Assembly (NCBI GenBank): GCA_951406725.2
Contig: OX597818.1
Span: 60,760,001 to 60,824,000, forward strand
DNA: 64,000 nucleotides
From: Octopus vulgaris
Lineage: Eukaryota
Reading direction: 5' to 3'
Each line of letters starts with the position of its first letter. Position 1 is the first letter of the stretch. Below, in pieces: positions 560-23,294 of the stretch. The notes beneath the pieces are model-generated. The model was not told the DNA's origin. It saw only the letters and a list, made by a program, of their open reading frames with translations, and did not search any database. Both the position numbers and the translations under genes were made by a program.

Positions 560-2275
560 GATTATGACCTTTCAAATCGAAGCTTTATATACCTGATTTA
601 AAGGATGAAATTCGAAAATTTAGCCTACAACTTTCAGCAGAATTTAAATGAGAATTTAACGACAAACCAGTAAATATTTATGAAAAATTTTGTCATCTCT
701 GAACAGCGGTAAAATTTATATGAAAATCAGAATAAAAGCTAAGATGTAATGATAATACGGATACTATAAAATTATCATTAGAATGCAAATTCATTAATCT
801 GAAACCAAATAAAACTCTACAGATTTAGATGTACAAGACAGCAAAATTTTAGCTCAACGCAAATGTTATATTCAATCTAAGGACTACAATGAAAACTCTT
901 TAAACCCAACAAAAAGTGGATTAGATAAATTAAGTCAAGTTCTCTTAAATAAGTAAGTGACTAGCCCTTATTAAAAAAAAAAAACATAGTGCGGTGACAA
1001 ACTGGCAAAATTGTCAATGTCGGAAAAATGCGATGCGGTAGTTTTGTGCTCAAATCCCGCCGCGGTCAACTTTGCCTTTCATACTTCTGGAGTTGGCAGA
1101 ATAAAGTACCAGTCAAGTATTGAGGTTAATGGTATCAAATAATCTTTACCCACAAAATTTCAGGTGCAGCGCCTATGTTAGAAGCAATTAGCTACTAGGA
1201 CAACAAGAGAAGGCAACTCACGCAATTGAGTGTTACCCATGGGTTGCCAAATCGCGATTTACAAGAACACTCTATTACACTGGAAACTACATATGAATGA
1301 TGATTCAAAAACAGAGAAATCGAGTGATGGGCGACTTAGATTCTGCCGTAAGCTGTGAACTCGTAGATCTTTATATTTTGCATCTGCTGAATTATGAATT
1401 CCATCATTTGTAATATGGTCTTTATAAAAATGATATAAAAATCATCACGTGGTAATTGTCTACCCAAGAATGAAATGAGTGTCGAGACGTAATGTTTTTT
1501 TAATTAGAGACTTGAACCAAAAACAATACGGTTCAAAGAAATTCGCATATTATTATCATTTGGGATTTAACGTTTGATCTGACTTCATACAAATACCCAG
1601 GTTTTAAGAAGCCAATTAAAAGGTTACAAAGCATATTGTCTTAAATATCCGCTTATTATTGATGAATTTTGTTTGTAAACTGTTACTTAATACATCATTC
1701 GATGAATTTCCCTTCAAGAAAATAAAATAATTCTTTCCTGTAATTAATAAACACGAATCAGGTTTAGAGTCAAAATTAATTATACATGAAAATTAATTTT
1801 ATGTTTCGCAGTATGAGACAACATAAAGGAATTGTTTAGAACTGAATTCAGGAACTACGTAAGAACTCGTATTGGTAACATTTATTTCAGGTAAACGCAT
1901 GGCTGAACAATTTAAATATTTTGAATCTTTTTTACAGGGATTTTCAAATTTAGCTTAGAAATAATTTAGTCTTAGCTTAGAAATAAGAAATATCAATAGT
2001 AAATGTAATTTGGTTCCAAAGATGATATTGTGTTAATCCAAAATTCTTCTAAAAGACAATTCAATCAGAGTCAGCATTCTTTTAGATATCCTGGATTGAT
2101 GTTTGGAAATAAATCTTTATAAAATAACGATGTTAGAAACCTTAAAATTATTTCCAATATATTTGACAGGCCAATCGTTATGATCAGAATAGCAGCGGTT
2201 GTGAATTTAGCCTCTCAGAGAAAATTGATATTTTCTTTCATAAAATCTCTATTTTAATCAGTTGCTCAAGGTTTG
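560..2275 (+). pseudogene. Degenerate Penelope-like element ORF (RT plus GIY-YIG C-terminus), frameshifted and interrupted by a SINE
   Basis: 855-953 translates QRKCYIQSKDYNENSLNPTKSGLDKLSQVLLNK (cf. FITLKDHK..NP.KS.IGKISK). 1327 onward gives MGDLDSAVSCELVDLYILHLL (cf. MGSFDGAEVCELVGLYIL). 1414-1434 gives YGLYKND (cf. GLYRDD). ~1560-1615 gives DLTFDLTSYKYPGFKKP. ~2180-2235 gives YDQNSSGCEFSLSEKIDI (cf. CNLCL.EK..I). Start boundary is approximate. Confidence 0.75.
988..1190 (+). mobile_element. SINE family B (Meta-domain-like core), diverged copy
   Basis: ctggcaaaattgt...caaatcccgccgcggtcaactttgcctttcat...ataaagtaccag matches other family B copies in the window. Confidence 0.7.
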
Positions 2276-22853: not shown

Positions 22854-22880
22854 AATATATATATATATATACATACATAT

Positions 22881-23047
22881 CGTCTTCCCTTCTTTGGATC
22901 TTTCCTTTTTCCTATGTTTCTGACGAAGAGCTCCGCTCGAAACGTTAAACCCTCCTTCTTTCCTTCTTTCCTGAGCGTCCAATAACACTATACTTGTTCC
23001 ACGTCCTCACGTTGTTGTGTTTTCTCTTTATGTTTTCATATTTGGAT

Positions 23048-23052
<5 letters not shown>
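22881..23052 (+). mobile_element. PLE-type tail element (family H2) between (TA)n tracts
   Basis: Homologous to 18940-19108; contains the HHR at 22916-22950. Confidence 0.85.
22916..22950 (+). ncRNA. Minimal type I hammerhead ribozyme, canonical core
   Basis: GUUU CUGACGA A GAGC UCC GCUC GAAA CGUU|AAAC; predicted cleavage after 22946. Confidence 0.8.
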
Positions 23053-23105
<53 letters not shown>

Positions 23106-23119
23106 GGAGTAAACACATA

Positions 23120-23184
23120 AATTCTAGCAAAAACTGTCTGATGAACTGCAACGTGAAACTTAGAGTAACAGGTTTTGTTGAATT
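23120..23184 (+). ncRNA. Complete type I hammerhead ribozyme in a ~100-bp insert (23104-23203) within (TA)n
   Basis: Extended stem I AAUUC-U-AGCAAAA-A-CUGU / ACAG-G-UUUUGUU-GAAUU; core CUGAUGA at 23138-23144; stem II AC-UGCAAC-GU; GAAA at 23155-23158; stem III ACU-UAG-AGU; GUA cleavage triplet ending at 23167. Confidence 0.88.
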
Positions 23185-23203
23185 TTCTGCTGCTTTAAAT
23201 AAA

Positions 23204-23294
<91 letters not shown>

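Follow-up and report, generated by a model that had tools for sequence, protein, structure and literature searches.

A hammerhead-bearing insert in an octopus (TA)n tract as a probable two-primer insertion of a Hydra-clade Penelope-like element

Introduction

A short insert with the core bases of a type I hammerhead ribozyme interrupts a (TA)n microsatellite of Octopus vulgaris (assembly GCA_951406725.2, contig OX597818.1). The window analysed here is a stretch of 64,000 nucleotides, positions 60,760,001 to 60,824,000 of the forward strand. Is this insert a mobile ribozyme, an active self-cleaving RNA or a fragment of something larger? A sequence-only reading had described a ribozyme-only insert of about 100 nt that should fold as a monomer, and that might be a minimal mobile unit or an internally deleted tail of a Penelope-like element (PLE). 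Our data indicate, with a probability of about 0.8, that it is a short head-to-head insertion of a Hydra-clade PLE with a two-primer origin, carrying a decayed dimer-type hammerhead without a function of its own.

Results

The insert (23104-23204) lies between (TA)26 and (TA)22 (Table 1). Both (TA)n tracts of the sequence-only reading were confirmed, and the length is 101 nt, one base more than stated. The insert is not ribozyme-only: bases 1-19 correspond, in reverse complement, to the end of the parent's tail, and bases 18-101 are sense pseudo-LTR (pLTR) up to a fixed internal end. The sense arm differs from locus L016 at three positions (23139, 23147 and 23161). In element coordinates the two arms do not overlap and are separated by a gap of about 136 nt. 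The ends of the 101-nt unit have no inverted-repeat relation to each other, and the window copy contains no ORF. A genome search with the insert, which had been proposed as a check on copies, boundaries and longer parents, yielded 761 candidates, of which 40 were scored and contained 59 matches, and it led to both the two-arm boundaries and the parent element. Most of the 59 matches span only bases 18-101, and many occur as inverted pairs. Of the proposed internally deleted PLE tail, the Penelope-like link was borne out and the deletion was not, the opposite orientation of the two arms ruling out an internal deletion of the tail.

Table 1. Features of the insert and of its target tract, in window coordinates
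Feature	Position	Strand	Basis or remark
(TA)26 target microsatellite, left flank	23052..23103	.	element ends adjoin (TA)n genome-wide
Inverted arm, terminal 19 nt of the 71-nt element tail (tail-end terminus)	23104..23122	-	exact reverse-complement match to L016 tail end; tail length from L048
2-nt microhomology common to both arms (junction)	23121..23122	.	19 + 84 nt arms in 101 nt
Sense arm, last 84 nt of pLTR, from 5' stop hotspot to internal terminus	23121..23204	+	subfamily B background, diagnostic sites
Stem I, 5' strand	23119..23137	+	outer 2 nt from inverted arm; constrained fold
Core CUGAUGA	23138..23144	+	U4 = 23139, C in most copies of the window copy's subfamily (B)
Stem II / loop II	23145..23154	+	2 bp; the family's GCAA-capped G-C pair lost through private change at 23147
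GAAA, palindromic stem III (23158-23166, centre 23162) and GUA	23155..23167	+	private C-to-T at 23161
Stem I, 3' strand	23168..23185	+	constrained fold
(TA)22 target microsatellite, right flank	23205..23249	.	directly follows the insert

Loci L015 and L016 (G000:C29) carry the same insertion with a LINE-like flank twice, 250 kb apart and inverted, as a segmental or assembly duplicate. In the window, the 3' piece of a different PLE-like repeat (22878-23051, + strand) terminates in the same (TA)n tract as the insert; its hammerhead is minimal, with CUGACGA at 22920, a 4-bp stem II and a two-base palindromic stem III. A weak tblastn match to the parent-element RT at 1327-1635 (+ strand; 30% over 103 aa, E 2e-7) is likely to be the remnant of another PLE.

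The parent was traced upstream from L025 to an RT-endonuclease frame, with 132 genome matches scored. L046 is a complete unit consisting of a hammerhead, the tail, a 727-codon open frame, a 3' UTR of ~1 kb and a second hammerhead; its layout is pLTR-tail-ORF-pLTR, and the hammerheads are 3,355 nt apart. The ORF is 711 aa from the ATG and contains RWK (37), DKT (113), RT motifs, GVVY (580) and YTG (598), a CxxC (CRLC, 667) and a CxH (CRH, 695). No Cys lies between GVVY and YTG, CCHH being absent. As in EN+ PLEs, a single RT and GIY-YIG ORF lies between pLTRs in the parent (L046, L047), and an inverted 5'-truncated copy has the tail at one end. The Atlas neighbours of the ORF are annotated as GIY-YIG/RVT_1 at 0.96-0.99, an annotation held by part of their members; Pfam (two ORF stretches) and a PDB sequence search returned nothing significant for the ORF.

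The Hydra clade is defined, in PMC8557442, by RWK, DKT, the absence of CCHH, CxxC and CxH, and a CxCX5C linker. The octopus parent has RWK and DKT, lacks CCHH, carries CxxC and CxH beside E and N, and prefers (TA)n. The linker is intact in L045; the five further loci read have Phe in place of its second Cys. A comparison by eye with the Hydra proteins in the supplement of PMC8557442 showed the ORF to be colinear with them. Judged by these sequence features, the parent is a Hydra-clade EN+ PLE and the octopus family is a new family of this known type. It is distinct from Hydra-1_Obim as published, from which it differs in both hammerhead and protein.

Hydra-clade EN+ PLEs (Craig et al. 2021, PMC8557442; Hydra-2_Amil, Penelope-3_HM, Hydra-1_Obim), as described there, share several features with the octopus family. 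Their GIY-YIG is C-terminal and has no CCHH in its core, RWK and DKT are present, CxxC and CxH adjoin the conserved E and N, and the targets are (TA)n. The hammerhead sits close to the 3' end, and its palindromic stem III has a 1-nt centre. In these hammerheads stem II frequently has one additional base on either side, as in the octopus family. According to the hammerhead table of that paper, stem III of Penelope-3_HM is identical to that of the octopus family, and Hydra-2_aMil has the same inner stem I and triplet. The octopus unit differs from published members in having 3,355 nt rather than mostly under 3 kb between hammerheads, a tail of 71 nt rather than 30-40, a 2-bp stem II, Phe at the second linker Cys in most ORFs read, and one U4C subfamily. 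Directly upstream of the ORF fragment of L025 there is a different, inverted Hydra-like GIY-YIG frame (L031:5652-6170, - strand).

Genome-wide, tail ends are joined to (TA)n in 5,204 cases and internal ends in 4,506. The two termini are 71 nt apart in the element, and contigs of three sequencing runs display the same two 3' termini. How they pair was read in 98 hammerhead-anchored loci (13 duplicates removed by hand). Both outer ends were resolved in 61 of the 98, and 60 of these had one end of each type (p 5e-17); the exception, L055, had two tail ends. The remaining 37 had no partner arm resolved within 1.5 kb, 35 showing one end only and 2 being unclassified. Eight of the one-end loci make four long pairs, each with one end of each type, and L112, a complex unclassified locus, reads internal/internal. 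When loci were anchored on a terminus instead (n=60), resolved partners were of the opposite type in 36/36, some insertions being counted from both ends.

Insert size varies continuously between 79 and more than 1,000 nt. Of 60 arms, 15 stopped 81-84 nt from the internal end; among 148 core-bearing arms, 56 stopped at 76-84, with 14 at 84 and none at 85. The window arm is 84 nt long. Arms ending at the ribozyme cut site (37 nt) were considered and rejected (0/60 at 35-39 nt, 3/60 at 33-43 nt). At both termini (L046:2540-2620; L014), the next 3-4 element bases resemble the (TA)n target. At internal-end junctions a target base replaces the element's next C in 28/30, as expected from mismatched-primer extension.

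The family has 4,989 motif copies, counted as exact matches to a degenerate 34-place pattern (control 0). The core is CCGAUGA (C4) in 1,237 of them, U4 occurs with a non-A before GAAA in 85, and by subtraction 3,667 belong to subfamily A (U4, A before GAAA), which has intact ORFs. The window copy bears the letters of subfamily B. Conservation of the core in family copies, by which the sequence-only reading had set store, turned out to be partial, one subfamily being without U4: among 35 arms chosen without use of the core, C4 was found in 16/18 B arms and U4 in 17/17 A arms. In every one of these 35 arms the base is G at 23147 and C at 23161 (T in the window); the window's changes at both positions are private. 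They weaken stems II and III.

The U4 of the window copy is, on these letters, most likely a product of CpG decay, because subfamily B arms mostly have C4, C4 lies within a CpG, and the partner arm is C4 in 9/11 readable B pairs having a U4 arm. The opposite-strand change is found in 47 copies, so that the 85 U4 copies exceed the expectation from CpG decay (p 0.001). This excess is explained only partly by subfamily A copies, which made up 5 of the 30 U4/non-A loci read (23 B-type, 2 unreadable). The result is a caution for motif-based ribozyme screens, since CpG decay can create a 'canonical' core in an individual repeat copy. A considerable loss of in vitro activity has been reported for U4C, with a viroid nevertheless staying infectious (PMC3088659).

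A descriptor scan recovered the core elements that the sequence-only reading had named, CUGAUGA, GAAA (23155-23158) and GUA, and the same predicted cut after 23167. The descriptor matched once in the 64-kb window and once in 300 shuffled windows (0.0033 per window), and the motif is therefore not a chance occurrence. Type I membership is indicated by a CUGANGA core, GAAA, UH, three helices and an open stem I. The interrupted stem I of about 16 bp was also reproduced, as 16 bp in a constrained fold; its two outer pairs derive from the arm junction and not from the native hammerhead, and its inner pairs have a probability of 0.99.

Other parts of the described fold did not hold up. The hammerhead had been called canonical; its stem II consists of an A-U and a C-G pair only under a 6-nt loop, whereas a canonical helix II has ~4 bp with G10.1-C11.1, and Rfam found no hammerhead match in the insert at the gathering score and none among 22 matches up to E 10. 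The supposedly real 3-bp stem III comprises two Watson-Crick pairs and A15.1-U16.1 over a 3-nt loop, and as a monomer hairpin it is unstable in the window copy (+2.1 kcal/mol, pair probability 0.01). The expected ability to fold as a monomer was not supported either: stem III is of the palindromic type with a 1-nt centre, and the constrained cleavage-competent monomer fold lies 6.2 kcal/mol above the ensemble, a predicted probability of ~4e-5 from nearest-neighbour energies, which take no account of tertiary contacts. The minimum-energy fold of the 100 nt is no better than that of shuffles (z -0.21). Family copies are nearly identical and offer no covariation for a contact between loop I and loop II.

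As a self-duplex, stem III reaches -7.4 kcal/mol in the family and -4.2 in the window copy. Its palindrome is able to swap between copies and is present in both pLTRs of L046, as in dimer-type PLE hammerheads. The folding model suggests that the window hammerhead is likely of this dimer type; alone it would have little or no cleavage activity, and it would probably work only when paired with a second copy. In the experiments described in PMC4209133 (see also the review PMC6765202), minimal PLE motifs tested singly were inactive and their dimers showed weak cleavage. Hammerheads whose helix III has 2 bp capped by a tetraloop are, on the other hand, capable of monomer cleavage, an axolotl motif reaching 22% in 1 h (PMC7229834). 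The minimal/dimeric PLE hammerheads of Cervera and de la Pena 2014 (PMC4209133), as presented there, share with the octopus motif type I topology, location in the pLTR, a short palindromic helix III and a weak predicted monomer; the octopus motif differs in its longer stem I (14 native pairs) and its very short stem II without G10.1-C11.1. The whole stem II and loop of the family (window 23145-23154) equals the 10-nt loop 2 tabulated for Penelope-2_NV. The short stem II may represent what is left of the end of a longer helix, or the likeness may be coincidental.

Discussion

The two-primer reading draws directly on the two-arm anatomy, the parent, termini 71 nt apart, the near-strict pairing of unlike termini and the hotspot of 5' stops. 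The element endonuclease would nick both strands of the (TA)n tract, and the two target strands would prime reverse transcription of uncleaved element RNA from separate start sites. One cDNA may have aborted after about 19 nt and the other may have run about 84 nt to the probable 5' end of the RNA, after which the two cDNA ends would have annealed via the 2 nt of microhomology. The hammerhead would then be present simply because it is located in the stretch from the probable transcription start to the priming sites. The 84-nt stop base is the centre of an initiator-like motif with the consensus YYANWYY. Together with the internal promoter described in the pLTR of Penelope (PMC2377424), this motif suggests that the stop is probably the 5' end of the RNA.

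Published insertions have much of this form. PLE insertion units (PMC3846280, PMC8557442) and the products of the anole PLE protein PAc (PMC11167929), as described there, have in common with the octopus insert head-to-head arms, a tail on one arm only, which is already known qualitatively from PMC8557442 and PMC3846280, and an AT-rich target. PAc cuts and extends both strands in vitro, starting at two RT sites that flank the tail of an unprocessed RNA template, and its hammerhead mutants still insert, so that hammerhead cleavage is not needed (PMC11167929). The octopus insert differs from these units in its extreme shortness (19 + 84 nt), non-overlapping arms and near-strict one-of-each termini, and the octopus start sites have 3-4 nt like a (TA)n primer, whereas those of PAc are reported as non-homologous. 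The start site of PAc was the same for both strands in vitro, and the strict one-of-each rule is thus unexplained by the PAc results as published.

The same parent could also have produced the inverted arm with only one primer, either through template switching or because the cDNA folded back and primed itself. Many family junctions are located on short palindromes, as described in PMC3846280, where head-to-head junctions are ascribed to self-priming on an antisense template. However, the arms of the window copy, with about 136 nt between them, are not simply produced by fold-back, which would also leave the one-of-each termini in 60/61 unpredicted. Because the window arms do not overlap, two primers are favoured over fold-back self-priming, to which we give little credence. 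Still less probable is a view of the 101 nt as a minimal non-autonomous element that PLE protein copies in one piece, as the mobile unit of the sequence-only reading would be. The same or nearly the same junction does occur at four loci, two of which share C4 and a G before GAAA. Against about 5,000 insertions, however, there are only three junction matches at <=1 mismatch besides the near match L003; the four loci differ at subfamily-diagnostic sites and right-end letters, one has no core, and the unit has no sense tail. An independent MITE- or SINE-like element would show many copies with shared private changes, where we found three junction matches on different haplotypes. The 84-nt arm is the commonest stop, at which recurrence is expected, and from the letters of these loci the junction likely recurs there rather than spreading by descent.

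The window copy might alternatively be active as a monomeric ribozyme and cleave host transcripts that run through it. All core bases are there, stem I is long and stable, and an A-U pair stands at the base of stem II. This reading is improbable given the predicted active fold at 4e-5, the two private changes in stems II and III, and the inactivity of single minimal motifs in PMC4209133. We also considered a non-LTR retrozyme (PMC7229834; bioRxiv 10.64898/2026.07.22.740005). Such elements, as described, are likewise non-coding, PLE-related and equipped with a type I hammerhead, but the octopus insert is not a head-to-tail tandem of 150-400 nt units. With a single hammerhead, no unit RNA could be released and circularised, and the absence of a tandem at the locus excluded this candidate.

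Under the two-primer reading, the locus is likely an ordinary by-product, one of thousands of decayed scraps, and not a new mobile ribozyme. The wider interest lies in the family, which bears on two open questions, the role of the hammerhead in endonuclease-bearing PLEs and the way in which tails and inverted arms arise. The family provides intact ORFs of 711 aa, a pair of subfamilies distinguished by the core base at position 4, a tail mapped precisely to 71 nt, and junctions by the thousand. In the open-access literature, with part of the PMC8557442 supplement, we found no report of the octopus family, of a U4C PLE subfamily or of a one-of-each count. As a tentative proposal, more doubtful than not, PLE integration in vivo might be a strictly asymmetric two-primer reaction on uncleaved RNA, with tiny inserts as 5'-end run-offs. 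Hammerhead catalysis would then be dispensable, and the motif may act in RNA-RNA dimerisation or packaging that brings two templates to an RT dimer. Dispensable catalysis is suggested by the U4C subfamily, which has a mismatched stem II base and yet passed 1,200 copies, with stem I and the palindrome of stem III preserved.

Across the family, arms often overlap in element coordinates, which requires strand displacement or two RNAs. Arms from different subfamilies were sought and not found among 41 distinct pairs, a result compatible with one RNA as well as with two. The base before GAAA differs between arms in 10/41 pairs, in a sample enriched for such variants, and linked sites agree. The position 5' of GAAA (window 23154) is hypervariable in subfamily B, with G 77, T 14 and C 9 among the first 100 of the 1,237 C4 copies. 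This variability may reflect a hairpin-templated change or RT error hotspot, or be a sign of two RNA templates.
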